Part shown: in pieces, positions 1 through 23,771 of the stretch
How the letters are laid out: each line of letters starts with the position of its first letter
Numbering within the stretch: position 1 is the first letter of the stretch
From: Escherichia phage ph0011
Direction: 5' to 3' (one strand)
Sequence record: OP557969.1
Length of the DNA stretch: 64,000 nt
Notes under the pieces: model-generated
Seen by the model: the letters and a program-made list of their open reading frames with translations, nothing else
Told to the model about the DNA's origin: nothing
Database searches by the model: none
Made by a program: the position numbers and the translations under genes

Positions 1-3278
<3,278 letters not shown>

Positions 3279-3366: not shown

Positions 3367-4425
3367 ATGAAATCTCTAGCTGAAATTCGTGCACACCTAA
3401 AAGCAGAACAAGAAAAAGCAGAAGCACAAAAGAATGGTACATTCACTGGTGAGCGTAAAGCTGATTCGTTTCTAGCTTTCTGGAACGTACCTTACAATGA
3501 ACCACTAAATCTACGTTTTCTACCAGATGCTGATGAGTCCAACCCATTCTTCTGGCGTGAACGTGACATGATTAACCTAACATTCAATGGTGTAGTCGGT
3601 ATGCACACTGATAAAGTAACCGTACAAGTACCTTGTAATGAAATGTGGGTTCCTAAATCTTGTCCGGTACTGAAAGAAGTACGTCAATGGTTCCAAAGTG
3701 CGAATGAAACAGGGAATGAAGAACTAAAAGCAATGGCAGGTCGTTACTGGAAGAAAAAAACCTATCTAATGCAATGCTTTATTGCACCAGATAGTGTTGC
3801 AGTAAAAGACGACATTGCACCAGAAAATCCAATTCGCCGTATTCTAGCTAACAAAGATATCTTTGATAAAGTTAAATCTATCCTACTAAACCCAGGTATC
3901 AAAGAATCCCCAACTCACTACGTTCAAGGTCGTGATTTTGGTATTGTTAAAACTAAGAACGGTGGTGGATATAATAGCTACGACATGTCACAATTCTCCA
4001 TGTCAGAACGTCCACTAAACGAAGAAGAACTAGCAGCAATCGAAAAATATGGTCTATTCAATCTAAATGATTTTATGCCAAAACAACCAACTCCAGAAGA
4101 GTTGAAAGCAATCGAAGAAATGTTCGAAGCATCAGTAAATGGTGAAGCATATGATCCAGCACGTTGGGCATTTGCATATCGTCCAGCGGGTGTACCAAAG
4201 CCTAACACTGGAACTACCACTGTCACTGAATCAAAACCAACTCCTGCTCCAGTACAACAAGAGTCAACACCTGCACCAGTAGCACCTACTGCTCCAGTTA
4301 CACCAGCACCACAAGCTGCTCCTGTAACCCCAGTAGCTACACCAGCAGCATCTACGACTGAAGCACCAAAAGAACAACTATCTGCATCTGCACTAGTTGC
4401 TCGTTTGAAACAACAAGGTAAGTAA
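3367..4425 (+). CDS. 32: Single-stranded DNA-binding protein (T4 gp32-like)
   Basis: RFLP motif and Cys pair (VPCNEMWVPKSCP) resembling the gp32 zinc-binding core; Pro/Ala/Thr/Val-rich repetitive C-terminal region. Confidence 0.65.
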   Translation: MKSLAEIRAHLKAEQEKAEAQKNGTFTGERKADSFLAFWNVPYNEPLNLRFLPDADESNPFFWRERDMINLTFNGVVGMHTDKVTVQVPCNEMWVPKSCPVLKEVRQWFQSANETGNEELKAMAGRYWKKKTYLMQCFIAPDSVAVKDDIAPENPIRRILANKDIFDKVKSILLNPGIKESPTHYVQGRDFGIVKTKNGGGYNSYDMSQFSMSERPLNEEELAAIEKYGLFNLNDFMPKQPTPEELKAIEEMFEASVNGEAYDPARWAFAYRPAGVPKPNTGTTTVTESKPTPAPVQQESTPAPVAPTAPVTPAPQAAPVTPVATPAASTTEAPKEQLSASALVARLKQQGK

Positions 4426-4495: not shown

Positions 4496-5614
4496 ATGAA
4501 AATGACAAGTGGTTTTGCAAACATTCTTAAAAACAGTACTGGTAGTGTTAAAAAGAATACTGGTGTTAGTGTTGGATTTCATGATCCAGATACATGGGTT
4601 AGTACTGGTAACTATGCACTAAATTACCGTATTAGTGGTTATTTTGACCGTGGTATCCCACTGGGTAAAGTAACTATGTTTGCTGGTGAATCAGGTAGTG
4701 GTAAATCTTTTATTGTATCCGGTAACATCGCACGTGAAGCTCAACAACAAGGTATTTTTGTTGTAATGATTGACACAGAGAATGCTTTGGATTCAGATTG
4801 GCTACAAGCTCTTGGTGTTGACACTTCTGAAGAAAAACTTCTTAAAGTTAATATGGGTATGATTGGTGATGTAGCCAAATTCACTTATGAATTTATTGAA
4901 GGATATCGCAAAGAGTACGAAAATACACCTAAAGATGAACGCCAAAAAGTATTGTTCATTATCGATTCGATTGGTATGCTTAATACTGAAGTATCTAATG
5001 ATCAAATGAAAGCTGGTAATCTTAAAGGTGATATGGGTCATAAACCTAAGCAGCTAAAAGCATATATTACTAACTGTGTGAATTCTATTGGTTCACTAAA
5101 TATCGGAATGGTTTGTGTGAACCATTCGTATGAATCACAGGATATGTTTAATCCAGATCCTAAAGTGTCTGGTGGTAGTGGTTTGATTTATGCATCATCA
5201 ATGGTGATTGCAATGGGTAAACTAAAACTAAAAGAAGATGAGGATGGTAATAAAACATCCGATGTGAGTGGTATTCGCTCCAAATGTAAAGTTATGAAAA
5301 CTCGTTATAATAAACCATTCGAGGAAGTTGAGATTAAGATTCCTTGGGATAAAGGTATGGACCCACGTAGTGGTCTACTAGATATGTTTGAAAAATACGG
5401 TCTAATCACTAAATCAGGTAACCGTCTATTGTATGTTGATATTGTAACTGGCGAACAGATTCTAAAATATCGCAAAGAGTGGATGCGTAATGAAGATTCA
5501 TGTCTTGATTTGGTAATGCATCAATTTAAAAATCATCCTTTGATTGAAGAAGTTAAAGAAGAAGAAAAAGGTGATGAAACTTTTGGTACTGATGTTGATA
5601 TTAGTGAGGAATAA
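4496..5614 (+). CDS. uvsX: UvsX recombinase (RecA-like)
   Basis: Walker A GESGSGKS, Walker B-like VLFIIDSIG, and C-terminal SGLLDM block matching T4 UvsX. Confidence 0.8.
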   Translation: MKMTSGFANILKNSTGSVKKNTGVSVGFHDPDTWVSTGNYALNYRISGYFDRGIPLGKVTMFAGESGSGKSFIVSGNIAREAQQQGIFVVMIDTENALDSDWLQALGVDTSEEKLLKVNMGMIGDVAKFTYEFIEGYRKEYENTPKDERQKVLFIIDSIGMLNTEVSNDQMKAGNLKGDMGHKPKQLKAYITNCVNSIGSLNIGMVCVNHSYESQDMFNPDPKVSGGSGLIYASSMVIAMGKLKLKEDEDGNKTSDVSGIRSKCKVMKTRYNKPFEEVEIKIPWDKGMDPRSGLLDMFEKYGLITKSGNRLLYVDIVTGEQILKYRKEWMRNEDSCLDLVMHQFKNHPLIEEVKEEEKGDETFGTDVDISEE

Positions 5615-6075
5615 TGAAACCTTGGCATTGGATTATCAAAGATGATAAATCTAAAATTATTGAAATGATTGAGTTCTTTAACAAAGAAATTGAAGAGGCT
5701 CGTCGTGAAGTAAAGAAGATTGGCATCATTGAAAAAATTGCTCAAGAGATTCCTGGCTGGCATGAGACGCGTCTAAGCCAGCTTCAAGAACTTGAAGCAG
5801 TATTGGAAATGTTAGAAATTGAAATGCGTCAGATACAAGCCGAGAAGTTCAAATACTTTCTCGAAGGATACCGCCGTGCACTATCTTCATCTGACTGTAA
5901 AAAGTATGTTGAAGGTGATAAAGATGTTTGTGAGTTAGCAGAACTTATAAACGAGGTATCTTATATAAGAAATACATATTCCAGTATTGTTAAATCCTTA
6001 GAGATGAAAGCTTTTCAGTTAAACAATATTGTGAGACTACGTGCCGCTGGTATCGAGGATGCACGTTTAGAATAA
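5614..6075 (+). CDS. Hypothetical coiled-coil protein (153 aa); possible recombination mediator by position only
   Basis: Start overlaps the uvsX stop (TAATG); no motif recognised. Confidence 0.5.
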   Translation: MKPWHWIIKDDKSKIIEMIEFFNKEIEEARREVKKIGIIEKIAQEIPGWHETRLSQLQELEAVLEMLEIEMRQIQAEKFKYFLEGYRRALSSSDCKKYVEGDKDVCELAELINEVSYIRNTYSSIVKSLEMKAFQLNNIVRLRAAGIEDARLE

Positions 6076-6125: not shown

Positions 6126-6944
6126 ATGACAAAATTAAATGAATTCTTATCAAATATAGCAGTTCTTGATACTGAAACCACTGGCGTTGAAAGTGATGAT
6201 GATATTATTGAATTTAGTATCTCATATCCATATACTTCACATGAAAACATTGATACTATTGATAACTATACATTGCGATATAAACCACTGAAAGATATTC
6301 CACCAGAAGCATCGGCTGTTCACTTTATCAGTACTGAGGATGTAGCTAATTGTGTTGGGTATAAAGATGATTTAGATAACATAGATGCACTTATGGGATG
6401 CCGTAAGTATTTTGTTGGTCATAATGTACAATTTGACCGTAGAATGATGGTAGATAATGAATATAAATATCGTAACTCAGTTTCACAGTACTTACTCGAT
6501 GAAGATAAATGGATTTGTACTCTTCGTTTGGCTAAGAAAATGTTTGCAGAAGATACCGAATATAAAAACTTAACTCTAAGTTATTTGTGGTATAAGTTTG
6601 GATGCCATCGAGATGTTCACAGACCTATTAATGCTCACGCGGCAAAAGATGATGTATTCATGTGTTATCAGGTTCTAATCAAATTGGTTGAAATTGCCAT
6701 CGAACGTGGTCATATTGATTCCAATGGGGATATTGGTGAACAAATAGTAGCTTTTTGTAACACCCCAATGCGTTATCAATTCATGCCATTTGGTAAACAT
6801 AAAGGTGAGCCAATGAATACAGTACCATTGAATTACATTGAATGGATGATCACTAATAGTGACATTTTAGATGCAAGTAACCCTAACTGTGATAAAGATT
6901 TAGTATATACATTTGAGTACGAATATAATACTCGAACTAATTAA
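6126..6944 (+). CDS. DnaQ-like 3'-5' exonuclease (DEDDh family) with C-terminal extension
   Basis: Exo I LDTETTG, Exo II HNVQFD, Exo III HAAKDD. Confidence 0.6.
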   Translation: MTKLNEFLSNIAVLDTETTGVESDDDIIEFSISYPYTSHENIDTIDNYTLRYKPLKDIPPEASAVHFISTEDVANCVGYKDDLDNIDALMGCRKYFVGHNVQFDRRMMVDNEYKYRNSVSQYLLDEDKWICTLRLAKKMFAEDTEYKNLTLSYLWYKFGCHRDVHRPINAHAAKDDVFMCYQVLIKLVEIAIERGHIDSNGDIGEQIVAFCNTPMRYQFMPFGKHKGEPMNTVPLNYIEWMITNSDILDASNPNCDKDLVYTFEYEYNTRTN

Positions 6945-6959: not shown

Positions 6960-9539
6960 ATGAAAATTTGTAAGTTAACTTTATTGGATGAGGTGAATTG
7001 TAAATTTGAGGGACTAGATCCCTCAATTCGACAAAAGATGATTCGTGCAACTGAATATGTGCTACCATATGCAAAGTTTACACCAGCAGGTCGTATTGGG
7101 CGTTGGGATGGTAAAGTACAATTCATGAACTTAGGTGGAAGCACATACTTTCATATGCTTGATAAACTTTTACCTATTCTTGACGAAGCTAATATTGATA
7201 TTGAATTAGAAGATCATAGACTAAATTACGGTTTCGAATTTGAACCAATTGATGAAAATATTTTTAGCGATGTTGTTTTTGGTCCTGGACACCACATGGA
7301 AGGTAAAAGTATTATCCTACGTGAACATCAGGTAAATGCAGTAAATTCGTGTTTAGCTAACCCACATGGGTTGGTTCTGGCAGCAACTGGTGCAGGAAAA
7401 GCCCAGCCACTTGATGAACCAGTTCTTACCATTAATGGATGGAAACGAATGGGTGACATAAAAGTTGGCGATATAGTAAAATGTCCTGATGGAACAAATG
7501 CTCCCGTCCTTGGTGTATATCCACAGGGAATTAAACCAACAGTACGAATGACATTCTCGGATGGACGAAGTGTCGAATGTTGTGATGAACATTTATGGAA
7601 TATATATAGTATTGCTGGTGAAAAAAACCCTGAAAAACGATGGAGAAACCTTTCTGTTAAAGAAATCATTGAATTACAAAATAAACAAAAACGTCCAGTA
7701 TATATTAAAACAATCACTGGTGATATTTTTGAAGAAAAAGAATTACCAATACATCCATATATTTTAGGTGTATTACTCGGTGATGGATGTTTAAGAAATG
7801 GTAATATAATGTTATCAAGTTCAGATGAATTTGTTATTGATAAGGTATCTTCATTATTACCTGATGGTTATATTATCAAGAAAAAACAATCATCAAAATA
7901 TGATTATAGTATTGTCATGGATGATACAAAAAAGAAAGAATATTTATGTAAAAATAATAAAGAAAGATATAACGAACTTAGGGTTATTTTGGAAGAACTT
8001 GGAATTTATAATAAGTATTCATATGAAAAGTTTATCCCTGAAATTTACAAAATGTCATCAATTGAACAACGTCTGCAACTCATTCAAGGATTAATTGACA
8101 CGGATGGTTATGTTGATAAAAGATTAAAAAACGGAAAGTCCCGAAATGTGGTGGAATTTTGTAGTACATCAGAAAAATTGGTTGATGATTTGAAAGATAT
8201 AATGAATAGTTTAGGTGGTTACGGTATTAAAAAATCTAAACAAACTTATTATACCTATGCAGGGGTAAAACAAAAAGGTCGCCCAAGTTTTAAAATGAGA
8301 ATTGATTATAATAATCTTAATGCCTTGGCTAGTTTACCTCGCAAAAAAGACTTTTTATATTCAGAAAGAAATCGTGTTGAAAATAAACTAAAAATTGAAA
8401 AAATTGAATATATTGAAGATAAAGAATGTCAATGTATCTATATTGATCATCCAGAACATCTATATATTACCAGAGATTATATCGTAACACACAATACAAT
8501 TATTTGTGCTGCTTTGGCGAAATCGGTACAAAAATATGGACGTTCTGTTATCATTGTCCCCAGCACTGACCTAGTACAACAAACATATGATGATTACATT
8601 ATGTGTGGATTAGATGCTGGTATGTTCTATGGTGCACAGAAAGATTTTGGTCATCAACATACTATTACTACTTGGCAATCATTTAACTCTCTATGGAAGA
8701 AAACCAAAAAAGGTGAAATTGAATTAACAGAACAAGACGTAAATGATTTTATTGATGGGGTAGTTTGTGTTATAGTTGATGAGTGTCAAGGTGCTGGTGG
8801 TGATGCATTAGTTCAAGTACTATCTAAAGTTATGAACAACGTACCATTGCGTTGGGGTCTTACTGGTACAATTCCGAAAGATCCGGTTGTTGCAGCGAAA
8901 ATCAAATGTAATGTTGGTGATGTTATATATAAAATCACTGCAAAGGAATTACAAGATAAAAAGATACTAAGTACATGTAATGTGAATTGCATTAAACTAA
9001 AAAGTAGTATGAAGTTTGCATCATATGCTGAAGAGTTGAAATACTTAGTAACTGACAGAGATAGAATGGCATATGTAGCGTCATTGATATCTGCGTTATC
9101 TGAATCAGGAAACACTTTAGTTTTAGTAGATAGACTTGAAGCAGGTGAGTTGCTATGTGAATTTTTAGGCATTCCCAAATCAGAATTCGTTCGTGGAGAA
9201 ACTAAAAAGAAAGATCGAGAATCATCTTATGGTGAAATTCGTTGGGCTGATAATAAAATACTTATTGCGACATACGGCGTTGCCAGTACTGGTATCAGTA
9301 TTTCAAGGCTATACAATGTAGTATTGATTGAACCTGGAAAAAGTTTCGTAAGAACTATACAATCAATCGGACGTGGATTACGCCGTGCTGAAGACAAAGA
9401 CCATGTTGAAATATATGACATTAGTGGTTCTAATAAGTATAGTGCAAAGCATTTACGTGAGCGTCTCGCTTACTATAAGGAAGCACAATATCCTCATACA
9501 GTAATAGACGTTAAAGATTGGGAAAACACAGCGGGATAA
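6960..9539 (+). CDS. uvsW: UvsW-like SF2 helicase interrupted by an in-frame intein
   Basis: Extein motifs: Walker A ATGAGK|T split by the intein, DECQ box, GLTGT, QSIGRGLRR (motif VI). Confidence 0.7.
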   Translation: MKICKLTLLDEVNCKFEGLDPSIRQKMIRATEYVLPYAKFTPAGRIGRWDGKVQFMNLGGSTYFHMLDKLLPILDEANIDIELEDHRLNYGFEFEPIDENIFSDVVFGPGHHMEGKSIILREHQVNAVNSCLANPHGLVLAATGAGKAQPLDEPVLTINGWKRMGDIKVGDIVKCPDGTNAPVLGVYPQGIKPTVRMTFSDGRSVECCDEHLWNIYSIAGEKNPEKRWRNLSVKEIIELQNKQKRPVYIKTITGDIFEEKELPIHPYILGVLLGDGCLRNGNIMLSSSDEFVIDKVSSLLPDGYIIKKKQSSKYDYSIVMDDTKKKEYLCKNNKERYNELRVILEELGIYNKYSYEKFIPEIYKMSSIEQRLQLIQGLIDTDGYVDKRLKNGKSRNVVEFCSTSEKLVDDLKDIMNSLGGYGIKKSKQTYYTYAGVKQKGRPSFKMRIDYNNLNALASLPRKKDFLYSERNRVENKLKIEKIEYIEDKECQCIYIDHPEHLYITRDYIVTHNTIICAALAKSVQKYGRSVIIVPSTDLVQQTYDDYIMCGLDAGMFYGAQKDFGHQHTITTWQSFNSLWKKTKKGEIELTEQDVNDFIDGVVCVIVDECQGAGGDALVQVLSKVMNNVPLRWGLTGTIPKDPVVAAKIKCNVGDVIYKITAKELQDKKILSTCNVNCIKLKSSMKFASYAEELKYLVTDRDRMAYVASLISALSESGNTLVLVDRLEAGELLCEFLGIPKSEFVRGETKKKDRESSYGEIRWADNKILIATYGVASTGISISRLYNVVLIEPGKSFVRTIQSIGRGLRRAEDKDHVEIYDISGSNKYSAKHLRERLAYYKEAQYPHTVIDVKDWENTAG
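7401..8495 (+). mobile_element. Intein (365 aa) with LAGLIDADG homing-endonuclease domain inside the helicase P-loop
   Basis: Begins right after GAGK; LAGLIDADG-like LLGDGCL and LIDTDGYVD; ends IVTHN (N at 8493-8495) followed by extein T; length is a multiple of 3. Confidence 0.75.
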
Positions 9540-9552
9540 TCCCGCTGTTTAT
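9528..9552 (+). terminator. Terminator hairpin overlapping the uvsW stop codon
   Basis: acagcggga-taa-tcccgctgt; the stop codon lies in the loop; followed by ttatg. Confidence 0.55.
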
Positions 9553-9567
9553 GATATAATATGACAT

Positions 9568-10020
9568 ATGACAACAACAAGGATGTATAATAAAATGGAA
9601 TTAAGATCTAGTATTGCTTTTATCTGTGACCAAGAAACGTTAGATGTTATTGATGTATTGTTGAATGATGATGGTATCATGGATGATATGGTGTCTTCTC
9701 TTGACTATATCCCTGAACTAGAAACTGATGATACTAATGTATGGAGGTGTAACATTGATAGTGATTCTTGGATTAATATCTATGAATTGCAATCACGAAT
9801 TGATTCTAAAGTCGAATCATTAAAATATGATATAATCTATGCCAGTACTGACACGAAAACTTTCATCGATGTTGTAAGTCTAAGTGGTAATTTTGATTCA
9901 TATCTGGATACTGATGTTGATAAAATTCAAGAGATGTGTGAAACTTATGGACTTGAATTTTATGGACAAGAAGAACTGGATGATGAAGATTATTATGATG
10001 ATGAAGATTCGCAGTATTAA
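9568..10020 (+). CDS. Hypothetical highly acidic protein (150 aa)
   Basis: ORF with D/E-rich composition and C-terminal DDEDYYDDEDSQY. Confidence 0.55.
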   Translation: MTTTRMYNKMELRSSIAFICDQETLDVIDVLLNDDGIMDDMVSSLDYIPELETDDTNVWRCNIDSDSWINIYELQSRIDSKVESLKYDIIYASTDTKTFIDVVSLSGNFDSYLDTDVDKIQEMCETYGLEFYGQEELDDEDYYDDEDSQY

Positions 10021-10531: not shown

Positions 10532-11377
10532 GTGTTTGATTTCAGTGATATTAAAAATAAGTCAGTCGATGATGATAATAAACCAACCCAGCATTCTTTT
10601 TCTATTGCTGAATTTCTAAAACACATTGACCGTGCAGATTATAAGTTCTATAATGAACTGACGGAAAAAGAACAAAAAGAGTTTACGCCATATACTGTAT
10701 TACGTTGGGTAAGCTCTTTGGATGATTCACTACAAGTCACATATCCCAGTAGTAAAGTTGAAAGTGTATTTGGTAAATGGAAAGCTGGTGGTAAAGAAGC
10801 ACTAACTGAACTAGTAACTGAATTAAAGGCTTCTGGGACTAAGGTTTCATCAGTGACGAAGTACTGTCATGGTGATTATGATTGGCGTATTAAATTTGCA
10901 GTCCAATCAAAAGATGATGCACATAAATTAATATCATCAATGATGGAATTTGGTGTCTCTGGTTCTGAAATTATTTCATTAGTAGATACTGAAGTAGTGA
11001 AATACCAACTTATTATGCTAAATGATATGGTTAATGATGGTTTCTGGGATATGAAAGAACATCCAGAATTAGTATATCAGCTTATGTGTTCTGTACATGA
11101 TATGATTGGTGCACAAGAAATGCCACGTAATTGGTTGAATTTTTCTAAAAATTTCAAAAAGGCAAATAATGAATTATTTGATTTGATTAAAAATTCACAG
11201 CCTGATACTATCGCTACTCAAATGAATGAAGATGAGTACAAGATTGTTTTATTACAGTATGATAAAAAAACATTTGAAACATTTCTTGACAATAATGGTT
11301 TTCAAGATAATGAAAAGAAATCTATGATGAAATTATTTAAAGAAGAATGTAAAAAATATGGCAAAGAAATCAAATAA
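10532..11377 (+). CDS. Hypothetical protein (281 aa)
   Basis: ORF; GTG start in track, true start uncertain. Confidence 0.5.
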   Translation: MFDFSDIKNKSVDDDNKPTQHSFSIAEFLKHIDRADYKFYNELTEKEQKEFTPYTVLRWVSSLDDSLQVTYPSSKVESVFGKWKAGGKEALTELVTELKASGTKVSSVTKYCHGDYDWRIKFAVQSKDDAHKLISSMMEFGVSGSEIISLVDTEVVKYQLIMLNDMVNDGFWDMKEHPELVYQLMCSVHDMIGAQEMPRNWLNFSKNFKKANNELFDLIKNSQPDTIATQMNEDEYKIVLLQYDKKTFETFLDNNGFQDNEKKSMMKLFKEECKKYGKEIK

Positions 11378-12068
11378 ACAAGTATATACGTGTAAATTTT
11401 GTGATCGTGAATTTAAGCGAGAAGAAACAGTACAGACACATAAATGCATAAAACGTGACAGATACGAAAATAGACAAAGCCGCCAGATGATGGAGGCGTT
11501 TCGTATCTATATGCAATTTATGGAATTGAACAAATTTACATTTAAAAAAGGCGTAGAGCCTTTTATTGCTTTTATAAAGTCAAAGTACTTTAACGATTTT
11601 TATAGTTTTGCTGAATACTATTTGAATAATAGAGATATTATTAATGTTGACGAGTTTGTAAAGTACTTAATTATTAATAACAGACCAATTACAGAATGGA
11701 GTACTTACAAAGCAAAAGATGAATGGATATTAAAAACGATTCGTTCTGAGCATCCAAAAGAAGCGATTGCAAGAAGTGTGATATCGTTGGTTGAATGGGC
11801 TGAAAAATTGAATGTACAATGGAATACTTTCTTTGAAAATGTGAGTTCTGCCCGTGCAATTGCATGGATTGAGAGTGGGAAAATATCACCATGGATCATT
11901 TGGTTATCTCCAAAACAAAGTACTAATACATTTTTTAAAAAGCTATCAAACTCAGAAATTGAATACATACTTAAATACATTGATCCAAGTTATTTTGAAA
12001 TTAAAACGATCAAATATAAAACGGATTGCGATGAAATTAAGAGTATGCTACGTGAGGCAGGATTATGA
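11358..12068 (+). CDS. Hypothetical protein with N-terminal zinc-finger-like motif
   Basis: YTCKFCDREFKREETVQTHKC (C-x2-C-x12-H-x-C pattern). Confidence 0.5.
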   Translation: MAKKSNKQVYTCKFCDREFKREETVQTHKCIKRDRYENRQSRQMMEAFRIYMQFMELNKFTFKKGVEPFIAFIKSKYFNDFYSFAEYYLNNRDIINVDEFVKYLIINNRPITEWSTYKAKDEWILKTIRSEHPKEAIARSVISLVEWAEKLNVQWNTFFENVSSARAIAWIESGKISPWIIWLSPKQSTNTFFKKLSNSEIEYILKYIDPSYFEIKTIKYKTDCDEIKSMLREAGL

Positions 12069-12394
12069 ATGGAAAAAGTATATATAATAAAATACCAGAA
12101 GGGTATGTACCTGTACCAAAAGAACAAAAAACAAAACAAATATCTCTTCTTAGACAAGGATCTATTACTGAAATAACTTTGGATGGTAAAACATTTCAAG
12201 TTCATGATCCCGCTCGTGTTGAAAAAATAATTTCTTTAGTAGAACGACATGAAGAACGTTTTTTTAGTTTAAGTCAGGAGTTAGCAAAGACGAAACAAAA
12301 TTATAAAATATTAGAGAATCAAATAACCACCTTGACTAATACCGTTAAACAGTTACAGGAGCAAGTAAAAAATGCAGGATTCGACAGATTCTAA
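12065..12394 (+). CDS. Hypothetical protein (109 aa)
   Basis: ORF overlapping the upstream stop. Confidence 0.5.
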   Translation: MNGKSIYNKIPEGYVPVPKEQKTKQISLLRQGSITEITLDGKTFQVHDPARVEKIISLVERHEERFFSLSQELAKTKQNYKILENQITTLTNTVKQLQEQVKNAGFDRF

Positions 12395-13010
12395 ACATTA
12401 CAGAAAAGCCAGAACTGATATTGATATTGACTTCAAGGATAGTAAAAGCGTCATCGCTAAACTTCCATGCGTGCGAAGTACTGAGAAAATTACTGAGGAT
12501 GGTTTAATCCCACACAATAGTGGTGTTCATTTTGATAATATACCAATTGACCCAATCACTGGATTGGCGAGTATACAATATAAAGAAGCTGAAAGGTTAG
12601 GGTATCAAAAAGTTGATATTCTTTCACAGTCAGCTTACATGTATGTTCGCGATAGAGAGCATTTAAAAGAACTAATGAATCAGGAACCGAATTGGGATCT
12701 TTTACTAGAACCCGAAATTGTAGAGCATCTTTCGCAAATTAAAAAACACGTAACTTTATTAAATGTATGGAAGCCTAAATCAATTGACGAACTTGCAATG
12801 TTTATTGCTATGATTCGACCAGGAAAAAGGCAGTGCCAAAGTATGAACACATGGGACGAAGTAAAAGCCACCATATGGGATTATAGTACTATTGGCACTG
12901 ACCAATCAGGAAATAAATTGCGATATTTCAAAAAGCCACATGCTTATGCATATAGCTTAATGATTGTAGTCCAACTAAATGCTTTAGTTGAACACCTTAC
13001 TTCTTCTTAA
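12372..13010 (+). CDS. Hypothetical protein (212 aa)
   Basis: ORF; no confident motif. Confidence 0.5.
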   Translation: MQDSTDSKHYRKARTDIDIDFKDSKSVIAKLPCVRSTEKITEDGLIPHNSGVHFDNIPIDPITGLASIQYKEAERLGYQKVDILSQSAYMYVRDREHLKELMNQEPNWDLLLEPEIVEHLSQIKKHVTLLNVWKPKSIDELAMFIAMIRPGKRQCQSMNTWDEVKATIWDYSTIGTDQSGNKLRYFKKPHAYAYSLMIVVQLNALVEHLTSS

Positions 13011-13392: not shown

Positions 13393-14385
13393 ATGGAAGG
13401 AAAAACTATGGCTCATCACGGCGTGTTTATGTACCCTTATAATCAGGAAGTATCATTGGGCAATTTTAATATGCCATATAGCAATGAAAAACTAACTATA
13501 TATAAAGGGGCAAATAATAATTTATCTTTTACTGTTCACAACGCTGATGGAAAGTATACTTTATTGAAAGAAAATGAATATCTTACATTTATGATTTTTG
13601 ATGTACGAAATAATACTAAACTATTTGATGTTGTTTTGGAAAAACAAGAACCAAGTTGGCTATCCGAAAGCGGTCAGGCCCGACAAACATTGGGAAATAA
13701 AAAGAAAGTATATTATGGATGTATTGTTCCAGCAGGTGTTATCCAAGATACCAGTCCTGGTTCCAAATATAGATGGAGTATCACTAAAGTAACAATGGAC
13801 GGTTCACTTGTAGAACCAACGCAATATCTATATACAGGTATGAACTATGAAGCATCAGCAGAGTTAATTATTTCAGACCAAGCTGTACCTGTATTTGTCC
13901 CTAGTACTGAAATATCTGTCAACCAAAATTCTGCATGGACGACTATTAAGCGTTTATATCATGAGCCTATTGGTAATGGTATGATTGGGGAATATGATAT
14001 TCTTGCATCAACACCCCTCCCTGCACAAATGCAGTTTGGATTGGTTGATGGATTGAGTAGTATAGCAATCTATTTTGATAAATTTATTGGTAGGATACAG
14101 CTTCAAGGGTGTTTGTGTAATGACGTACCAAATGATAATGAAAACTATAAATGGTTTATTATTAAATTAGATGGAAAGGATTATATTGAAAATGGGGTGG
14201 ATGTGGAAGGATTTCCAGAAGAACTCGATGGAATTGAAGCATTTAATTTTAAAGGAAATTATATGTGGTTAAGAATTGTAGTAGCTATTCATCCTAAAAC
14301 TGTTCCAGTACCATATGACTATGCTGCTGTGAGAAAAGTGTATGACCCTTTCTTAACTGTACCTAAAATTTTGATTCGCAGGTGA
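13393..14385 (+). CDS. Hypothetical protein (about 330 aa)
   Basis: ORF; in-frame ATGs at 13393 and 13408, the latter preceded by GGAAGG. Confidence 0.55.
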   Translation: MEGKTMAHHGVFMYPYNQEVSLGNFNMPYSNEKLTIYKGANNNLSFTVHNADGKYTLLKENEYLTFMIFDVRNNTKLFDVVLEKQEPSWLSESGQARQTLGNKKKVYYGCIVPAGVIQDTSPGSKYRWSITKVTMDGSLVEPTQYLYTGMNYEASAELIISDQAVPVFVPSTEISVNQNSAWTTIKRLYHEPIGNGMIGEYDILASTPLPAQMQFGLVDGLSSIAIYFDKFIGRIQLQGCLCNDVPNDNENYKWFIIKLDGKDYIENGVDVEGFPEELDGIEAFNFKGNYMWLRIVVAIHPKTVPVPYDYAAVRKVYDPFLTVPKILIRR

Positions 14386-14411
14386 GACAAAACCCGAAGT
14401 TGTGCTATAAT
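14384..14411 (+). promoter_or_regulatory. Promoter-like element GAGACA-N16-TGcTATAAT upstream of primase
   Basis: Same architecture as the elements at 3251 and 28164. Confidence 0.5.
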
Positions 14412-14440: not shown

Positions 14441-15496
14441 ATGAACGCTGTACAAAACATAATGGCACAAATAATGAATGACCCAGTACCTGCAATTGGC
14501 ACATGGACACATCACAACTGTCCCGCGTGTGTGTTCAGAGGACATTCGAGGCCGGACATAAAGAACCGTGGTAATCATATGTTCAATGCCGATGGTTCCG
14601 TTTCATATAACTGCTTTAACTGTAGTTTGAAAACTGGCTGGCAACCAGGAAAATATATGAGCAAAGATATGGAGTCTTTGCTCATTTCTTTTGGTGCACA
14701 AGATAAAGAAATTGAATTAGTTAAGTTTTATATTAAAGAAATGGTTGATAGTGGTGAATATGCTACACAAGAAACCGTTGTAACAAAACTATATGACCGA
14801 ATAACGGTACGTGATTTACCATCAAATGCTAAAACATTTTGGGATTGGGCTTCACTACCAGAAGATAAAATTCCGCAAGAATTTTTGAGTGTTTTACATC
14901 ATGTAAATGAAAGAAATCCATATTTGTTGGATTTGGAATTATATTGGTCACCTAATAAAGAACATAAAATGTATGATAGATTTATGATTCCTTATTACAT
15001 GAATGGTAAAATAATTGGTTATGCTGCTAGACATAAATTAAAAGATCCGGGAAGCACATACAGATTTATAAATCAGGTAAGTACTAATATATTGTATAAT
15101 TATGATTTATTGAAAGATGACAGAATAAAAACGATTTTAGTATGTGAAGGGCCGTTGGATGCAGCATTGATGGGCGGTGTATCTGCTAATAACTTTAAAT
15201 TATCAAACTTGCAGATTGACGTATTAAAAGATGCCCAGAAAAAAGGGAAAAGGATAGTTATTGTTCCAGATAGAGACAAAGATGGATTAATAACAATAGA
15301 CCAAGCACTTGAAAATGGATTCAGTGTGTCTTTCCCTGATTTTGGTACAGTAAGAGAAGGTAGTACGATACGTCATATCAAAGATTTTGAAGAGGCGTGT
15401 TCGCGATTTGGTAGGTTATTTTGCTTACAATTAATACATGATAGTATAGTAGATGAGCCATTTTATATTAAAGCTCAAACTGATAAATGGATGTAA
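14441..15496 (+). CDS. 61: DNA primase (T4 gp61-like)
   Basis: N-terminal zinc-binding Cys/His cluster (HHNCPACVFRGH...NCFNC); Toprim-like LVCEGPLDA and IVIVPDRDKDG. Confidence 0.7.
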   Translation: MNAVQNIMAQIMNDPVPAIGTWTHHNCPACVFRGHSRPDIKNRGNHMFNADGSVSYNCFNCSLKTGWQPGKYMSKDMESLLISFGAQDKEIELVKFYIKEMVDSGEYATQETVVTKLYDRITVRDLPSNAKTFWDWASLPEDKIPQEFLSVLHHVNERNPYLLDLELYWSPNKEHKMYDRFMIPYYMNGKIIGYAARHKLKDPGSTYRFINQVSTNILYNYDLLKDDRIKTILVCEGPLDAALMGGVSANNFKLSNLQIDVLKDAQKKGKRIVIVPDRDKDGLITIDQALENGFSVSFPDFGTVREGSTIRHIKDFEEACSRFGRLFCLQLIHDSIVDEPFYIKAQTDKWM

Positions 15497-15518: not shown

Positions 15519-17039
15519 ATGATTCAAAGCACAGTGGATGTGAAACAATATGGGATTAATGCACAACAATACTTATTATCTCAGATTTTCAGTAATCCTG
15601 ATTTGTATGTACGTTGTAAAAATATCCTTAAACCTGAATATTTTGATAAAACATTTCATGAAAGTATTCAATTCGTACATGATTACGCCGCAAAATATAG
15701 TTCTTCTCCAACGTTGAAAGATATTGAAGTTAAAGGTGGTTATCAATACGATCATTATGAAGTACAAGAATTACATAAACAATCAGTACTTGATACCTGT
15801 GGTGAGTTTTGTCGCCATAAAGCATTAGCATTGGCAGTTGAAAAAGGAATGGAACTTGTTCATCAGAAAAAATATGGTGGAATCGAAGAGCTAATCCGAG
15901 AAGCGATGTTGGTAACTGTACAGAATGAGTTAGGTTTGGACATTTTTGAAAATCCAGAAGATACCATTCGCTCACTAAGTTCAATGCAAGGGTCATTTAA
16001 AAGTGGATGGGAAACTCTTGATTATAAACTTTTCGGTGGTTTTGGGCGTAGAGAGTTAGAGATCTTTGCTGCTGCATCAGGTGGTGGTAAATCAGTAGTG
16101 TTGCAAAATTTAGCAGTAAACTTTGCTAAAGCTGGTATGAATGGTGCATACATCTCACTAGAACTAGCTGAAGAGTTGGTTGCAGTTCGTATCTATGGTA
16201 TGATGACAGAATCGAAGCTCAGTAATGTAAAAAATGAAGCTGAAAAGATTGGATTTGCCGTTAAGGTAGAAGGTAAAAATAGTGGCATCTTGCGTATTAA
16301 ACGTTTACCTGAATCTGTAACAACAACAGATGATATTGAAAGCTATTTGCGTGAATTACAAATTAAGTTGGAAATAAAACTTGATTATGTATGCGTGGAC
16401 TATTTGGATCTATTAACTTCTAATCGTCTTGGTCCAAATGATAAATCCAACACATTTACAAAAGACAAATTTGTATCAGAAGAATTACGTGCTCTTGCGT
16501 CCAAAATGGATCTAACAGTTTTCACTGCATCACAGTTTAACCGTAGTGGGATGGATGAAGATAAGAAAAGTCAAAGTCAGATTGCTGGTGGTATTTCTAA
16601 AATTTATACTGCGGATAACGTAATTTATATTGAAGCAAAAAAAGACACTGGTGAATTATGGTTTGATTTTCAAAAAACACGTAACAGTAGTGCTGTTGGT
16701 TCACGTTTGCGTATGTCATATGATATTGATTCATTGCGTGTTCTTGATCATGCAACTACAGTACAACAAATGGAAACTGAAGGTAATGGTTTTCGACACA
16801 GTGGACTCTCTAAGATTGGTGGGGGTAATATGGTGTTACCACCTAGTACAATGCAAACATTGCGTCATACGCTCTCTGGTGCTGCCAAAACACCATCTAC
16901 ACAACCAAACAATCAGATAACACTAAATACTGATAGTGCTCCTAACACCGCAACACAAAATGACTCACAGTCACCGCCACAACACGCGGCTTCTGACCGT
17001 GTTCATGCGATGAAGCAATGGTTAAATCAAAGGAAATGA
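15519..17039 (+). CDS. 41: Replicative DNA helicase (DnaB / T4 gp41-like)
   Basis: Walker A ASGGGKS, Walker B-like VCVDYLDLL, DnaB-like N-terminal region. Confidence 0.75.
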   Translation: MIQSTVDVKQYGINAQQYLLSQIFSNPDLYVRCKNILKPEYFDKTFHESIQFVHDYAAKYSSSPTLKDIEVKGGYQYDHYEVQELHKQSVLDTCGEFCRHKALALAVEKGMELVHQKKYGGIEELIREAMLVTVQNELGLDIFENPEDTIRSLSSMQGSFKSGWETLDYKLFGGFGRRELEIFAAASGGGKSVVLQNLAVNFAKAGMNGAYISLELAEELVAVRIYGMMTESKLSNVKNEAEKIGFAVKVEGKNSGILRIKRLPESVTTTDDIESYLRELQIKLEIKLDYVCVDYLDLLTSNRLGPNDKSNTFTKDKFVSEELRALASKMDLTVFTASQFNRSGMDEDKKSQSQIAGGISKIYTADNVIYIEAKKDTGELWFDFQKTRNSSAVGSRLRMSYDIDSLRVLDHATTVQQMETEGNGFRHSGLSKIGGGNMVLPPSTMQTLRHTLSGAAKTPSTQPNNQITLNTDSAPNTATQNDSQSPPQHAASDRVHAMKQWLNQRK

Positions 17040-17316: not shown

Positions 17317-17481
17317 ATGAAGAAAAAGAATATTAAAGAGAATGCATCATCCGGTGCTACTTCAGCAGGTGCTATTGCATCAGTCAGTACTGGTTTGCAT
17401 TATCCATTACATCGTCGATTGCCTCCAACAGACTTCTTTGGATATAAAGTAGTAGAGACAAAAGATAAGGACACAGAATGA
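17317..17481 (+). CDS. Hypothetical small protein (about 54 aa)
   Basis: In-frame ATG at 17317 right after the upstream stop; track ORF 17287 would overlap. Confidence 0.35.
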   Translation: MKKKNIKENASSGATSAGAIASVSTGLHYPLHRRLPPTDFFGYKVVETKDKDTE

Positions 17482-17870
17482 AACCATATACTTTCTACAC
17501 TATACATACTGTAGTAGATATCGGTGATGGTAAAACTCCAACAATAATAGATTCAAAGTTTACTGGTGCAATGAATTTATCTAGATTGTTGGAGGCAATT
17601 ATGGTATATGATTATCCTATGATGGTAAGTGTTGTTAAAAATGAAGTTGATTTATATAAAGATAATAATTCATCTTTTTATAATATACCAATTTCATGGG
17701 GTAAATGTACAATAAGCACATTTAAATTTGCACTACCAATGGATGTTGAACTTAGATTGAATGGTATTCCATTAGTTCTACCAACTGAATTAAATGGTAA
17801 ACGAATAACTAAATTTATCACATCTGGTGATGATATCAACATTAGCATCAGTAAACAGACCTTTTCTTAA
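17478..17870 (+). CDS. Hypothetical protein (130 aa)
   Basis: ORF with ATGA overlap. Confidence 0.5.
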   Translation: MKPYTFYTIHTVVDIGDGKTPTIIDSKFTGAMNLSRLLEAIMVYDYPMMVSVVKNEVDLYKDNNSSFYNIPISWGKCTISTFKFALPMDVELRLNGIPLVLPTELNGKRITKFITSGDDINISISKQTFS

Positions 17871-17926: not shown

Positions 17927-18871
17927 ATGGATATAAACCAAACAGCAACCGAGCTTCAAAAGTTCGCAGATGCACATAATTTAAATGTTGATGTTTCTGT
18001 AATTCTTGATAATATGGATGCAGGTGATTTCATCACCTTAAATTCTGCGATTGATAATTCTGACAATCGTGAAATATTCCAAATTTTACAAAAATACAAA
18101 GCACAGATGAGTGAATGTTATGAATACTTCAGTACTAAAAATGTTAGTAAACATATAAACGAAAGTACTGAACTTTATAGTATTATTGATGCAATGTCAC
18201 TAAAACAATTAGAAGAAATGTATAATAAAAAATATACTTATTCTGATACAACAAAATTAACCACACAGGAATTAAAAGCGATTGTATTTGAGGATTTTCA
18301 AAATCAAACAACACAAATGCAAGCTAAACAAATTGCTAAAATGAATGTTTCTCAAGACCAACAGCAAGTTAATCCACAAACACAAGCTAAAATGAAACAA
18401 GCTGAGCTACAAAGAAATGCTAATAATATAAAGGTTAGTGTTCCTGGTACACAAGACGGTACTGATGCAGTTGAGCCAGTTGTGGGTATTGATCCAGGTC
18501 AAACACCAGAACAATCACTAGTAGTGACAAAGAGTGGTACTAAACCGAATGAATTGAATGTTTTCCCATTAAATGATGTCAATCCTATAGACAATCAAAA
18601 CACGCCAATCCGTGAGGAAAAATCCCCACAAGAAATCAATAGTGAACTAATGGGTAATTCAAGTTTAGAGTCTGATAGTAACCCTGATACACAATCACCA
18701 CTATCACATCACGCCCCTGGTATGGGTGAAATGATTCATGCTATTTCTGATATCGAAAAAGAAGATGATATTTATGGTGATGAAAGTGTAATGGCAAACC
18801 AGTCCCAATCTGAGAATGATGACATGGTGGATCAAATTATTGATTATTGTCATCGTATGCGAGGTCGTTGA
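17927..18871 (+). CDS. Hypothetical protein (314 aa), Gln-rich
   Basis: ORF with GGAGA RBS. Confidence 0.55.
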   Translation: MDINQTATELQKFADAHNLNVDVSVILDNMDAGDFITLNSAIDNSDNREIFQILQKYKAQMSECYEYFSTKNVSKHINESTELYSIIDAMSLKQLEEMYNKKYTYSDTTKLTTQELKAIVFEDFQNQTTQMQAKQIAKMNVSQDQQQVNPQTQAKMKQAELQRNANNIKVSVPGTQDGTDAVEPVVGIDPGQTPEQSLVVTKSGTKPNELNVFPLNDVNPIDNQNTPIREEKSPQEINSELMGNSSLESDSNPDTQSPLSHHAPGMGEMIHAISDIEKEDDIYGDESVMANQSQSENDDMVDQIIDYCHRMRGR

Positions 18872-19089: not shown

Positions 19090-19760
19090 ATTACGAATAT
19101 GATCAACAATCCGTTAATCAGATGGCAGATTTATTAAGTGGTCTTAATGATATTGAAGCTGGTGAAACACATAATGCCGCAGGTGTTCCATATAAAGCAA
19201 GTGGTGATATTGGTGCAATGACTGCAATTTTAACTTCATTAAATGAAGCTGGAATGGATTACGGTACTGATCCAGAGAAGATTCATCCGAACGTTGTGCC
19301 ATACAATGCACCATTCAATGAACACATGAATGGACAACAATCTACCATTCAGCCATATAGTCAACCATCTAAGCCGAAAACTAATTGGAGCTTAGTAGAA
19401 GAAAAAGTTCAAGGAACTAAATCTACCAAAGTGTATAGTATCAAGTGTAATCATAGTTCACAGATTATTATGAATAATATTATGATGTATGAAGCTGCAC
19501 TTACATTAGTTAATCTTTTGAATGAAGGACGAATGTTGACAGATGCAAAACTCCTTGGTATAATTAGTTCTGGATTACAATACACAAATGTAATCAGTGA
19601 GGCATTAAAAGCTGCTCAAAGGCGACAACGTGTTCTTAATGAATCAAAGTATGATGAAGCAAAAGAATTAGATATAATTATTGCAGAAAAGAAAGCAGAA
19701 GCTTATAAATTGAAAGAGCGTGTATTGAACTTTCTTAAAAATGAAGGGTATATTACCTGA
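19086..19760 (+). CDS. Hypothetical protein (224 aa)
   Basis: ORF with ATGA overlap. Confidence 0.5.
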   Translation: MNYEYDQQSVNQMADLLSGLNDIEAGETHNAAGVPYKASGDIGAMTAILTSLNEAGMDYGTDPEKIHPNVVPYNAPFNEHMNGQQSTIQPYSQPSKPKTNWSLVEEKVQGTKSTKVYSIKCNHSSQIIMNNIMMYEAALTLVNLLNEGRMLTDAKLLGIISSGLQYTNVISEALKAAQRRQRVLNESKYDEAKELDIIIAEKKAEAYKLKERVLNFLKNEGYIT

Positions 19761-21508
19761 TGTTAGATGAATTGAAGAAATTCTTAAAAAGCAAAAACAA
19801 AAAAACATGGGTTAAGTTGGTAAACAATAATGAATTATATTTTAAATATGTTCGTGAATTGTTCCCAACTAAACCAATGAATGAAGCATTGTATCTTATC
19901 ATGAATGACATGGTGCGTGCACCATCTGCCCCATGTGGTTCTGAATGTAAATTTATTAATGGTTCATATGATAAGTATTGTTCTAAGCCTACAAAACCAA
20001 ACAAAAATCGTGATAATGGGTTTTGTGTAGTATGTAATGAGCATTGGAAGCAAAACAAACTCAAAAATACTAAACAAAAATGTCTTGATGTTTATGGTGT
20101 CGAACATCATTGGCAAAGAAATGATGTAAAAGATAAAATAAAAAGTACTAATATGAAACGATATGGTGTTGAACACAATTCACACGTCGAACATGTACTT
20201 GAAAAAAGAAAGGAAACTTTCATTGAAAGATATGGTGTTGAATCACCGTTATCATCTGTTGAAATTCGTGATAAGATAAAAGCAACAAACATTGCAAAAT
20301 ATGGTGTTGAAAATTATGGAAGTACATGTGAATGTATCGAAAAACGAAATAAAACAATGCAAGAATTATATGGTTTTAGTAATGCACAACATGTAAAGAA
20401 GTTTTCAAATGAATCAAAGATTACTAAATCTAAAATAAGATATGATAAAATTTTATCTATTATTAACCCTTCATATAAAGAACTGTTTGAATATGATGAC
20501 TTGATAGATTCAACCAATGAAAGTAAACTTCCGTACTATTGTGAAATACACAAAGGACTGTTTTATAGTAATTATAAATATGGTATAGTTTGTGATGTTT
20601 GCAACCCACCTGTATATAGTTCAATACAAAATGAAATAAAAAACTTTGTATCAACATTGACTGAATGTAACATTATCATGAATGATAGAAGTAATGGGTA
20701 TGAGTATGATATATACATCCCTGAACTTCAGATAGCAATAGAAGTCAATGGAATGTATTGGCATAAAAGTGATATGGTTGATAAGTATTACCATAGAACA
20801 AAAACAATAAATTCGATAGAACGTGGGATTAGATTGATACATATCTTTGAAGATGAATGGTACTGTAAACAGGAAATTATTAAAAATAGATTAATGAATG
20901 TTTTTCAGTGTTCTAGAAAGATTTATGCCAGAAAATGTATTGTTAAAAAAATTAACACTAATATTTGTTATGATTTCTTAAACACTAATCATATACAAGG
21001 ATATACTAAATCTGGAATAAACTATGGTTTGTTTTATAATCAAGAATTGATTGCAGTAATGACGTTCGGAAAAAGTCGATATGATAAAAAATTTGAATAT
21101 GAACTAATACGATACTGCTCACGTGGAACTGTTGTTGGTGGTGCTAGTAAATTATTGTCTGCATTTGAGCGTGAATACAAACCATTGTCGTTGATGAGTT
21201 ACGCTGACTTGAATTGGGGGTCAGGACAGTTATACATATCTCTTAACTTTGAAAATTTAGGATACACAGAACCCAAATATTTTTATTATGATCCAAAAAC
21301 AAAACAGCGTTTTTCTAGACATAAATTTAGAAAACATAAATTAATTGAAATGGGCTACGACTCATCTAAAACTGAAGAAGATATATGCTTAGGTGAAATT
21401 GGATTGTATAAAATATACGATTCTGGTAATTGCAAATTTGCTAAATATTATTACAACACAAACATTACAGGAGATATTGAAAAATGTCCAAATCGTACAA
21501 AAAACTAA
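19760..21508 (+). CDS. Putative free-standing homing-endonuclease-like protein: zinc ribbon, four tandem KYGVE repeats, endonuclease-like core, unknown C-terminal domain
   Basis: Repeats VYGVEHHW / KRYGVEHNSHVEHV / ERYGVESPLSSVEIRDKIKATN / AKYGVENYG; core YEYDIYIPELQIAIEVNGMYWH resembles a Vsr/DUF559-type PD-(D/E)xK motif; Cys cluster near N-terminus. Confidence 0.5.
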   Translation: MLDELKKFLKSKNKKTWVKLVNNNELYFKYVRELFPTKPMNEALYLIMNDMVRAPSAPCGSECKFINGSYDKYCSKPTKPNKNRDNGFCVVCNEHWKQNKLKNTKQKCLDVYGVEHHWQRNDVKDKIKSTNMKRYGVEHNSHVEHVLEKRKETFIERYGVESPLSSVEIRDKIKATNIAKYGVENYGSTCECIEKRNKTMQELYGFSNAQHVKKFSNESKITKSKIRYDKILSIINPSYKELFEYDDLIDSTNESKLPYYCEIHKGLFYSNYKYGIVCDVCNPPVYSSIQNEIKNFVSTLTECNIIMNDRSNGYEYDIYIPELQIAIEVNGMYWHKSDMVDKYYHRTKTINSIERGIRLIHIFEDEWYCKQEIIKNRLMNVFQCSRKIYARKCIVKKINTNICYDFLNTNHIQGYTKSGINYGLFYNQELIAVMTFGKSRYDKKFEYELIRYCSRGTVVGGASKLLSAFEREYKPLSLMSYADLNWGSGQLYISLNFENLGYTEPKYFYYDPKTKQRFSRHKFRKHKLIEMGYDSSKTEEDICLGEIGLYKIYDSGNCKFAKYYYNTNITGDIEKCPNRTKN

Positions 21509-23230: not shown

Positions 23231-23771
23231 AAAAATGAAACAAGATCTATATACAATTCGTGCTTTAGAAAGTAAAGGGTATGATTTAGAAGAAGTTATC
23301 AAACTAAGTGATGAAGAAATTGACAATCTTGATTTATCACATAAACTGATTCTAAATATTAAAGATTATAAACAGCGTGGTGCTAAACCTGTAGAAGTAA
23401 TTAAAGAACAAATTGCACAAGATATTAGTATCGATGAGGTATCACGTAATGTGCCACCAGAAGTAATCCAAGAGTATGCTGTCAATAGTGAAGAACAGGT
23501 AAAAGTTTCTAAAGAAGTCGAAAGTATGGCAGAAGAACTAGTTCCTGAAGTCAAAGAAGATGAAATTGTTATTGAGCGAGTGGTTTCTTCTAAAGAAGAT
23601 TTGGATATTATCAAAGAAGCACTACAAACTAAAGAGCTTAAAAGTGTATCTAGTTATGTAAAACATTTAAAATCTATCGTCCCAGAACAGATTCTATCTT
23701 CTGTCGATAGTTCAGTAGTATCTCAGTTGATCAATGAGCGTATTACTGAAGTTAAAGAAAAAGCTAAATAA
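23217..23771 (+). CDS. Hypothetical acidic protein
   Basis: ORF; GGAG 12 nt upstream of the ATG at 23217; start uncertain (alternatives 23199, 23235). Confidence 0.45.
   Translation: MEQHKKMKQDLYTIRALESKGYDLEEVIKLSDEEIDNLDLSHKLILNIKDYKQRGAKPVEVIKEQIAQDISIDEVSRNVPPEVIQEYAVNSEEQVKVSKEVESMAEELVPEVKEDEIVIERVVSSKEDLDIIKEALQTKELKSVSSYVKHLKSIVPEQILSSVDSSVVSQLINERITEVKEKAK

Follow-up and report, generated by a model that had tools for sequence, protein, structure and literature searches.

A conserved, strongly acidic protein encoded beside the UvsW-type helicase gene of Rak2-like jumbo phages, a possible counterpart of T4 UvsW.1

Lambda Gam and T7 gp5.9 inhibit RecBCD, and Ocr (T7 gp0.3) blocks type I restriction enzymes and the bacteriophage exclusion (BREX) system. 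[quoted passage not shown] In T4, the acidic protein UvsW.1 (Pfam PF11637) is encoded directly after uvsW; it is 76 amino acids (aa) long in the T4 record, carries a net charge of -12, and ends in ...EDSDDEVEESF (...AELEDSDDEVEESF). Kerr and colleagues reportedly found it in 2007 to be a small helical bundle. It has also been described as “trihelical” (PMC7824862). As a review (PMC5314882) relates from Perumal et al. 2013, the acidic tail at the C-terminus of gp32 is bound by T4 UvsW, which depends on this contact for its activity on gp32-coated DNA; helicases of the UvsW type are therefore able to read acidic tails. The DNA analyzed here, called the window throughout, is a stretch of 64,000 nucleotides (nt) from Escherichia phage ph0011 (OP557969.1), in which a gene for a small and extremely acidic protein follows directly on a UvsW-type helicase gene. 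This protein, referred to below as the acidic protein, is compared with the systems above.

The acidic protein is tentatively read as an accessory protein of the phage recombination/replication machinery and as a non-homologous counterpart of T4 UvsW.1. Both proteins are small and acidic, both are encoded on the same strand as a UvsW-type helicase gene and directly 3' of it, and both carry an acidic tail with an aromatic end. The last residue is Phe in 69 of 70 UvsW.1 family members, and the last 15 residues of these 69 members have a net charge of -4 to -11 (-6 or lower in 67 of them). Among the 60 close homologs of the acidic protein, Tyr is the last residue in 57, and the last 15 residues have a net charge of -6 to -11. 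In 16 of the 18 remote homologs, an aromatic residue stands among the final three, not always at the very end. The two families differ in size, sequence, and fold: the acidic protein is about twice as long as UvsW.1 and nearly three times as charged, an hhalign comparison gave a probability of 0.2% and hmmsearch E > 0.4, PF11637 did not match the family of the acidic protein, and the small helical bundle of UvsW.1 stands against a modeled alpha/beta, ferredoxin-like domain. A homolog of UvsW.1 was not detectable in the window, and clusters of UvsW.1 occur on contigs of up to 193 kb, the genome size of T4-like phages, while clusters of the acidic protein occur on contigs of up to 383 kb. Together these two observations suggest that, within the sensitivity of the searches, the families replace each other and are mutually exclusive. 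It appears rather doubtful, though it deserves consideration, that two unrelated folds independently took the position after uvsW with the same acidic, aromatic-ended tail.

The open reading frame (ORF) at 9568-10020 on the + strand encodes 150 aa when counted from its first ATG and ends in ...LDDEDYYDDEDSQY. It contains 39 Asp/Glu and 9 Lys/Arg residues (26% Asp/Glu), and with a net charge per residue of -0.20 it ranks as the most acidic of 84 non-overlapping ORFs of the window (mean -0.023, standard deviation 0.044; z = -4.0), which bears out the central claim of the first-pass annotation that this ORF is strongly acidic. The true start of the gene is probably the ATG at 9595, judging from a Shine-Dalgarno sequence 11 nt upstream and from the lengths and MELRS... 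N-termini of the homologs: all 60 close database homologs are 139-151 aa long, and those aligned begin with MELRS.... The nine codons in frame before this ATG are probably an untranslated leader. The calculation of isoelectric point (pI) and charge that the same annotation had proposed gave a pI of about 3.35 and a net charge of about -32 for the resulting 141-aa product, 28% of which is Asp/Glu. The hidden Markov model (HMM) of phrog_16541, a group of unknown function, matches the product with E = 2.4e-73 over profile positions 1-140 of 145, and the gene is annotated as “hypothetical protein” in every record examined. The acidic protein is a conserved hypothetical protein that is already present in databases.

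In an alignment of 27 homologs, a conserved core of ~124 residues is followed by a tail that varies in sequence and is always acidic. An AlphaFold2 model based on a more diverse 29-sequence alignment reached a mean predicted local distance difference test (pLDDT) score of 86.4 and a predicted template modeling (pTM) score of 0.77, with values of about 90 or higher in the core. The core is confidently modeled as an alpha/beta domain of ferredoxin-like type to which a hairpin and a helix are added, its elements following in the order beta1, alpha1, beta2, beta3, alpha2, beta4, beta5, beta6, alpha3. The pLDDT falls below 50 in the tail, at residues 127-141 in a first AlphaFold2 model and at residues 127-136 and 139-141 in the second. 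The structural prediction that the first-pass annotation had recommended was thereby carried out, and it yielded this alpha/beta core with a disordered tail and not an Ocr-like helical fold. The tail is disordered, acidic, and aromatic-ended as tails of the SSB type are, and an OB-fold ssDNA-binding domain was not found in the protein, whose ferredoxin-like core is itself strongly acidic.

The charge is retained throughout the family. Whole-protein net charges range from -28 to -38 in the 60 close homologs and from -25 to -38 in the 18 remote homologs, which are about 21-43% identical to the acidic protein. Across the family the core alone accounts for -17 to -27 and the tail for -10 to -13, basic residues are nearly absent from the final 20 positions, and the composition of the tail is kept while its sequence changes. 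Acidic residues are placed on all three helices and many loops of the model, and the strong negative charge persists to about 25% identity (~75% divergence). Judged from these comparisons, the charge itself is conserved by selection, and nucleic-acid-like electrostatics are therefore a reasonable guess at the mode of action. The gene as a whole is also under strong purifying selection, as its neighbors are: the ratio of nonsynonymous to synonymous substitution rates (dN/dS) against phage 121Q is 0.055 overall and 0.024 in the core, which is 97.6% identical to that of 121Q, and neighboring replication genes have values of 0.01-0.09.

The family is narrow, as only 20 genuine matches were found in 1.84 billion representative proteins. 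The profile search returned 22 matches, two of which were spurious repeat proteins; the remaining 20 comprise one cluster of close homologs, a fragment of 52 aa, and 18 proteins that are 128-156 aa long and consist of a single domain. Searches with single sequences and with profiles against Pfam, NCBIfam, PDB sequences, and PHROG function labels gave no match, and in Pfam none was found at E <= 0.01 for the acidic protein. With three family members as tblastn queries, the gene was found in all 72 Rak2-like phage records, which cover nine host genera, and no match was found in the genera of PA5oct and Atu_ph07. A search for related loci with one family member (P0070) found nothing in viral contigs. 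The literature search on the gene found no transcriptomic, proteomic, or genetic data, and gp199 is unmentioned in the main text of the phAPEC6 virion proteome study.

At the DNA level, the window shares about 91% identity with PBECO4, 121Q, and related Asteriusvirus phages, and by this similarity it belongs to a Rak2-like jumbo phage (Asteriusvirus), whose genomes are about 350 kb long. All confident genes of the window lie on the + strand. The acidic gene adjoins the UvsW-type helicase gene at its 3' side and on the same strand in every locus examined, namely the window, 121Q, JP4, GAP32, Vibrio phage 2.275.O, and the metagenomic lineages L005 and L008 (contigs of 58 and 143 kb), and the upstream gene is annotated as UvsW-like helicase in 121Q and phAPEC6. 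Identity to the acidic protein is 64% in GAP32, 25% in Vibrio phage 2.275.O, and about 28% in the two metagenomic lineages. Wherever a locus extends far enough, the gene order from the terminase to DnaB is identical (SSB-UvsX-UvsY-exonuclease-helicase-acidic protein-...-primase-DnaB), and the order of the five small genes that follow is kept in GAP32, Vibrio phage 2.275.O, L005, and L008. These five genes probably share a transcription unit with the acidic gene. In fEgEco12, the termini of which have been mapped, the acidic gene lies about 227 kb into the 375-kb genome, away from the genome ends. By gene order, every Rak2-like phage examined, marine relatives included, has the acidic gene as a core gene at a fixed position in its replication/recombination block.

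A promoter-like element precedes the gene. It consists of an upstream box, GGATAATC, a 10-nt spacer, and an extended -10 sequence, TGATATAAT, and the -10 of the acidic gene is conserved in 121Q and GAP32. The motif TGNTATAAT occurs at 22 sites of the window against 8.1 +/- 2.9 expected, and the composite motif GGACAAAC-N10-TGNTATAAT occurs eight times on the + strand and not at all on the - strand, compared with 1.47 +/- 1.36 times after shuffling. Of the eight composite sites, six keep the 10-nt spacing exactly and show a perfect extended -10; two of these six precede the SSB gene in tandem, one precedes the acidic gene, one precedes the primase gene, and two lie further downstream. The composite motif may represent a promoter type analogous to the MotA-dependent middle promoters of T4. 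The acidic gene seems to be the first of a transcription unit whose type matches that of known replication genes, and from this we infer a possible co-regulation with replication, as with T4 middle promoters. Generic scans of the window for sigma-70 promoters and terminators performed no better than on shuffled sequence. A perfect 9-bp hairpin whose loop is the helicase stop codon overlaps the promoter box and may, from its sequence, act as a terminator or attenuator. Hairpins occur at the equivalent place in Vibrio phage 2.275.O and L008; the terminator scan did not call the one in the window, which has a short T-run.

Features of the acidic gene and its surroundings (coordinates refer to the window unless a locus is named)
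Feature	Coordinates	Strand	Basis or remarks
Large terminase	79-1854	+	Gene order
gp32-type SSB	3367-4425	+	Gene order
UvsX	4496-5614	+	Gene order
UvsY	5614-6075	+	Gene order
DnaQ-like exonuclease	6126-6944	+	Gene order
UvsW-type superfamily 2 (SF2) helicase, directly upstream of the acidic gene	6960..9539	+	Pfam ResIII, Helicase_C, LAGLIDADG_3
Perfect 9-bp hairpin ACAGCGGGA-TAA-TCCCGCTGT	9528..9548	+	Loop is the helicase stop codon; overlaps promoter box
Promoter-like element GGATAATC, 10-nt spacer, TGATATAAT	9534..9560	+	Composite motif enrichment
Extended -10 TGATATAAT	9552-9560	+	Part of the promoter-like element
In-frame upstream extension, nine codons MTTTRMYNK	9568..9594	+	Homologs start at MELRS; predicted transcription start near 9567
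Shine-Dalgarno sequence AAGGA	9579..9583	+	11 nt 5' of ATG 9595; read from the sequence
Coding sequence of the acidic protein	9595..10020	+	141 aa plus stop; counterpart of 121Q gp11, PBECO4 gp493, phAPEC6 gp199c
Globular core, residues 1-124	9595..9966	+	AlphaFold2; beta-alpha-beta-beta-alpha-beta plus two strands and a helix; net -22
Disordered C-terminal tail, residues 125-141, QEELDDEDYYDDEDSQY	9967..10017	+	Net -10; free of basic residues; contains three Tyr, one of them C-terminal
Five tightly packed small genes of 165, 281, 236 (zinc finger), 109, and 212 aa	10030..13010	+	ORFs, PHROG matches
Primase	14441-15496	+	Gene order
DnaB-type helicase	15519-17039	+	Gene order
Six exact promoter sites	3175-3201, 3252-3278, 9534-9560, 14385-14411, 28165-28191, 32083-32109	+	Composite motif
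SSB basic-tip loci	Window 3367-4425 (C-terminus about 4200-4422); L003 809-1801; L005 2674-3801; L008 1803-2963; L013 (PA5oct) 9001-9987; L014 9001-10002		

As an accessory factor, the acidic protein would combine a compact, very acidic ferredoxin-like domain with a flexible acidic and aromatic tail. Its polyanionic surface and its tail would attach to partner proteins at their basic surfaces for DNA binding or tail binding; the likeliest of these partners would be the adjacent UvsW-type helicase and, failing that, other recombination/replication proteins. Docking would then recruit the partner or regulate its access to DNA, so that nucleic-acid-like charge would be aimed at phage proteins and not at host restriction enzymes. 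In favor of this proposal stand the fixed place of the gene, its presence in all Rak2-like records, its low dN/dS, the conserved charge, the promoter type shared with the SSB and primase genes, the parallel with UvsW.1 and the apparent mutual exclusion of the two families, the reported binding of the gp32 tail by T4 UvsW, and the lack of an acidic tail on the SSB of these phages. Several points weigh against it. The analogy with UvsW.1 carries over position and design and not an activity, and we infer both the binding of the acidic protein to the helicase or other partners and its effect on their activity. The acidic protein evolves faster than its neighbors, being 25-28% identical where the helicase keeps 44-61% and UvsX about 64%. 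Its own promoter and the preceding hairpin mean that it is not simply co-transcribed with the helicase. PA5oct has a related block with SSB, UvsX, and helicase, yet an unrelated, non-acidic ORF follows the helicase there, and an acidic partner is therefore not universally required. T4 has both the acidic-tailed gp32 and UvsW.1, which means that replacement of a missing SSB tail cannot be the whole story.

The first-pass annotation had suggested that the protein could be a DNA mimic of the anti-restriction kind. The extreme charge on which this idea was built is indeed conserved by selection, while an anti-restriction mimic of the Ocr/ArdA type is left without support by the lack of a family match, the fixed core-gene position, the dN/dS of 0.055, the replication-type promoter, and the internal genome position. 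A wider form of the idea, in which the acidic protein is a host-directed DNA mimic that blocks RecBCD, a type I restriction enzyme, BREX, or another nucleoid or defense protein, is considered unlikely but draws on more than the conserved net charge of about -32, the 28% Asp/Glu, and the acidity of all three helices and many loops. Known DNA mimics share no common fold, hence a new fold is no argument against it; lambda Gam and T7 gp5.9 also sit in recombination/replication gene groups, so that the location of the gene is compatible with an anti-RecBCD role; and recombination-based replication leaves DNA ends to protect. Commercial restriction enzymes cut Asteriusvirus DNA normally (PMC13070987), for which reason protection by a protein may be needed. 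The core-gene behavior of the acidic gene counts against a classical anti-restriction role.

A different partner could be the gp32-type SSB of this phage group. It lacks an acidic tail and carries instead a long Pro/Thr/Ala-rich linker with a conserved basic amphipathic tip, which was found in the window (...SALVARLKQQGK), Vibrio phage 2.275.O, L005, and L008 and also in PA5oct and Atu_ph07; the further tip sequences are ...SDLLAKLKAAKGE, ...NDLLAQLQNRK, ...DIIALIRARQNSGN, and ...DLIAQLKARQSAK. The acidic protein might serve as an adaptor for this tip (...SALVARLKQQGK) or for the basic zinc-finger protein and present its tail to the replisome, by which a separate protein would re-create the acidic domain of T4 gp32. 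The charges are complementary, the SSB gene and the acidic gene stand under the same promoter type, and the zinc-finger gene (11358-12068), three genes downstream, encodes a basic product with a pI of 9.2. Nevertheless, such an adaptor is judged quite improbable. The same tip is present in PA5oct and Atu_ph07, where tblastn found no homolog of the acidic protein, so the tip is independent of the acidic protein and the version specific to the SSB tip is weakened. Least probable of all, and only barely to be expected, is a metal-binding or catalytic domain in which a divalent-cation site is built from the four residues D79, D86, D92, and D101 plus S95 and G98 and the charge is secondary. At about 25% overall identity, 97-100% of sequences keep an acidic residue at each of these four positions, two of which are placed within otherwise hydrophobic beta-strands, and the weak fold neighbors include palm-like, GGDEF-type, and M20 metallopeptidase dimerization domains.

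Homology to Api92/YubB (PDB 2ijr) was also considered, and none was detectable. YubB from the F-plasmid leading region served as the query, and both DUF1281 and DUF1281_C were confirmed in it before the profiles were compared; the comparison of the acidic family with a 20-sequence DUF1281 alignment of YubB homologs then gave an hhalign probability of 0.8%. DUF1281 and DUF1281_C (PF06924, PF18406) were not found in 29 members of the acidic family at Pfam E <= 10. The ferredoxin-like fold is very common, and any resemblance to Api92/YubB would be at the level of the common fold only. In the F plasmid record NC_002483.1 (12811-13781), YubB is split over two overlapping frames and missing from the distributed gene table, which probably reflects an annotated pseudogene or a sequence frameshift.

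Besides the main ORF, the first-pass annotation had listed two further acidic proteins, at 21484-22119 and 23217-23771. Both are rich in Asp/Glu, and the net charge of both lies within the normal range for this phage: the former has 19% Asp/Glu, 32 Lys/Arg, a net charge of -9, and a pI of 4.7, and the latter 22% Asp/Glu, a net charge of about -12, and a pI of 4.5. ORF 21484-22119 matches phrog_14154 (virion structural protein) and contains a 40-residue patch of net -16 at residues about 109-148, TGDITDGPDVSDIGSEDVDIDIASDTPTFDMDADADFEDD. Its start is overlapped by ORF 19760-21508, which encodes a large basic protein of 582 aa (pI about 9, net +23). This protein has DUF7487 repeats and, below the threshold, weakly matches a restriction-endonuclease-like domain (MTES_1575). 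Other acidic products of the window are those of ORF 48332-48898 (188 aa, net -20, pI 4.0, no Pfam match) and ORF 17927-18871 (314 aa, net about -25, matching phrog_14883, virion structural protein). A second real charge outlier that the annotation had not listed is ORF 62188-62643, with 151 aa, a pI of 3.8, and z = -3.1. Its net charge is -24 by residue count and about -23 at pH 7, it belongs to phrog_30548 and has no Pfam match, and many small genes of unknown function surround it. Its 36 records all fall in the Escherichia/Salmonella subgroup of Asteriusvirus, and identity to the copy in 121Q is only 62%. Owing to this narrow distribution and fast divergence, it is a better counter-defense or DNA-mimic candidate than the acidic protein. 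Paralogy between the two was rejected (BLASTP E = 0.7).

Neighboring genes provided several additional observations. The helicase is 859 aa long in the window and 494 aa in PBECO4, 121Q, and JP4. The ~365 extra residues split the P-loop region (after ...ATGAGKA), hold a LAGLIDADG domain, and end in ...VTHN|T, and the insertion looks like an intein with a homing endonuclease. In the large terminase ORF, a LAGLIDADG/homing-endonuclease segment (residues 2-69) precedes the terminase ATPase domain, which suggests a second intein that starts before the window. The last of the five downstream genes (12372-13010, 212 aa) matches phrog_11778, annotated as “DNA polymerase”, and its ...GYQKVDILSQ... resembles the KMDFLGL catalytic-Asp motif of the DNA polymerase III alpha subunit (Pol III alpha); matches in Pfam and among PDB sequences were not found for it. 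A split minimal Pol III alpha has been described in group 2.2 jumbo phages (Iyer et al. 2021, PMC7824862), and from its motif this ORF is probably one piece of such an enzyme. The acidic protein as a fragment of split Pol III alpha was rejected, given its own start, stop, tail, and independently folding domain, and the pieces of Pol III alpha were placed elsewhere by Iyer et al. (PMC7824862). A relic of polymerase motif C in the hairpin of the acidic protein, “IIYASTDxxTFIDV”, was likewise rejected, as statistical support was absent. The ORF that directly follows the UvsW-type helicase in PA5oct (17355-17606) encodes gp268, a non-acidic protein of 83 aa. A local “SGDFD” match had made it a candidate for a divergent homolog of the acidic protein, which was rejected at an hhalign probability of 0.75%. 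Since gp268 is unrelated to the acidic protein, the small protein encoded after the helicase differs between lineages.

If the acidic protein is indeed an accessory protein of the recombination/replication machinery, a conserved “hypothetical” core gene of all Rak2-like jumbo phages, several of which are under study for phage therapy, would gain its first testable role. The finding would also shed light on T4 UvsW.1, in that the conserved feature at the position after uvsW would be the acidic, aromatic-ended tail and not the fold. If two unrelated folds did independently take this position, they would define a general class of tail-bearing cofactors for fork-remodeling helicases of the UvsW/RecG type. 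Such a case would also imply that Rak2-like phages have rewired the charge docking of the T4-type replisome, because their SSB ends in a basic tip and gp32 in an acidic tail. Under the accessory-protein reading, nucleic-acid-like charge would organize the phage's own recombination/replication machinery as opposed to blocking host defenses. For genome scans, extreme acidity alone predicts an anti-restriction function poorly, and core accessory proteins such as the acidic protein are told apart from better counter-defense candidates, such as the product of ORF 62188-62643, by their gene context, distribution, and evolutionary rate. The case is of moderate interest for its convergent tail design next to uvsW and its charge-inverted SSB tip, both of which are directly testable.

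Compared with the known systems, the acidic protein shares with Ocr and ArdA a small size and a very high negative charge density. Ocr is an all-helical, elongated dimer shaped like bent DNA, whereas the acidic protein is modeled as alpha/beta; the Ocr family was absent among Pfam matches at E <= 10 for the 29 family members. The gene for Ocr is an early one that sits close to the end of the genome and is the first to enter the cell, in contrast to the acidic gene inside the replication/recombination block (about 227 of 375 kb in fEgEco12). Neither sequence or HMM similarity to ArdA nor its three-domain fold was found in the acidic protein, which is likewise unrelated in sequence and fold to any further known DNA mimic. 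Lambda Gam and T7 gp5.9 resemble it in being acidic and encoded among recombination or replication genes; they are helical dimers, while the alpha/beta model of the acidic protein has no similarity to them in Pfam, sequence, or fold. With the tails of T4 gp32, T7 gp2.5, and E. coli SSB it shares a disordered, Asp/Glu-rich C-terminus with a terminal aromatic residue. Its tail differs from these in having several internal aromatic residues and in being carried on a strongly acidic, non-OB domain that is not plausibly DNA-binding.

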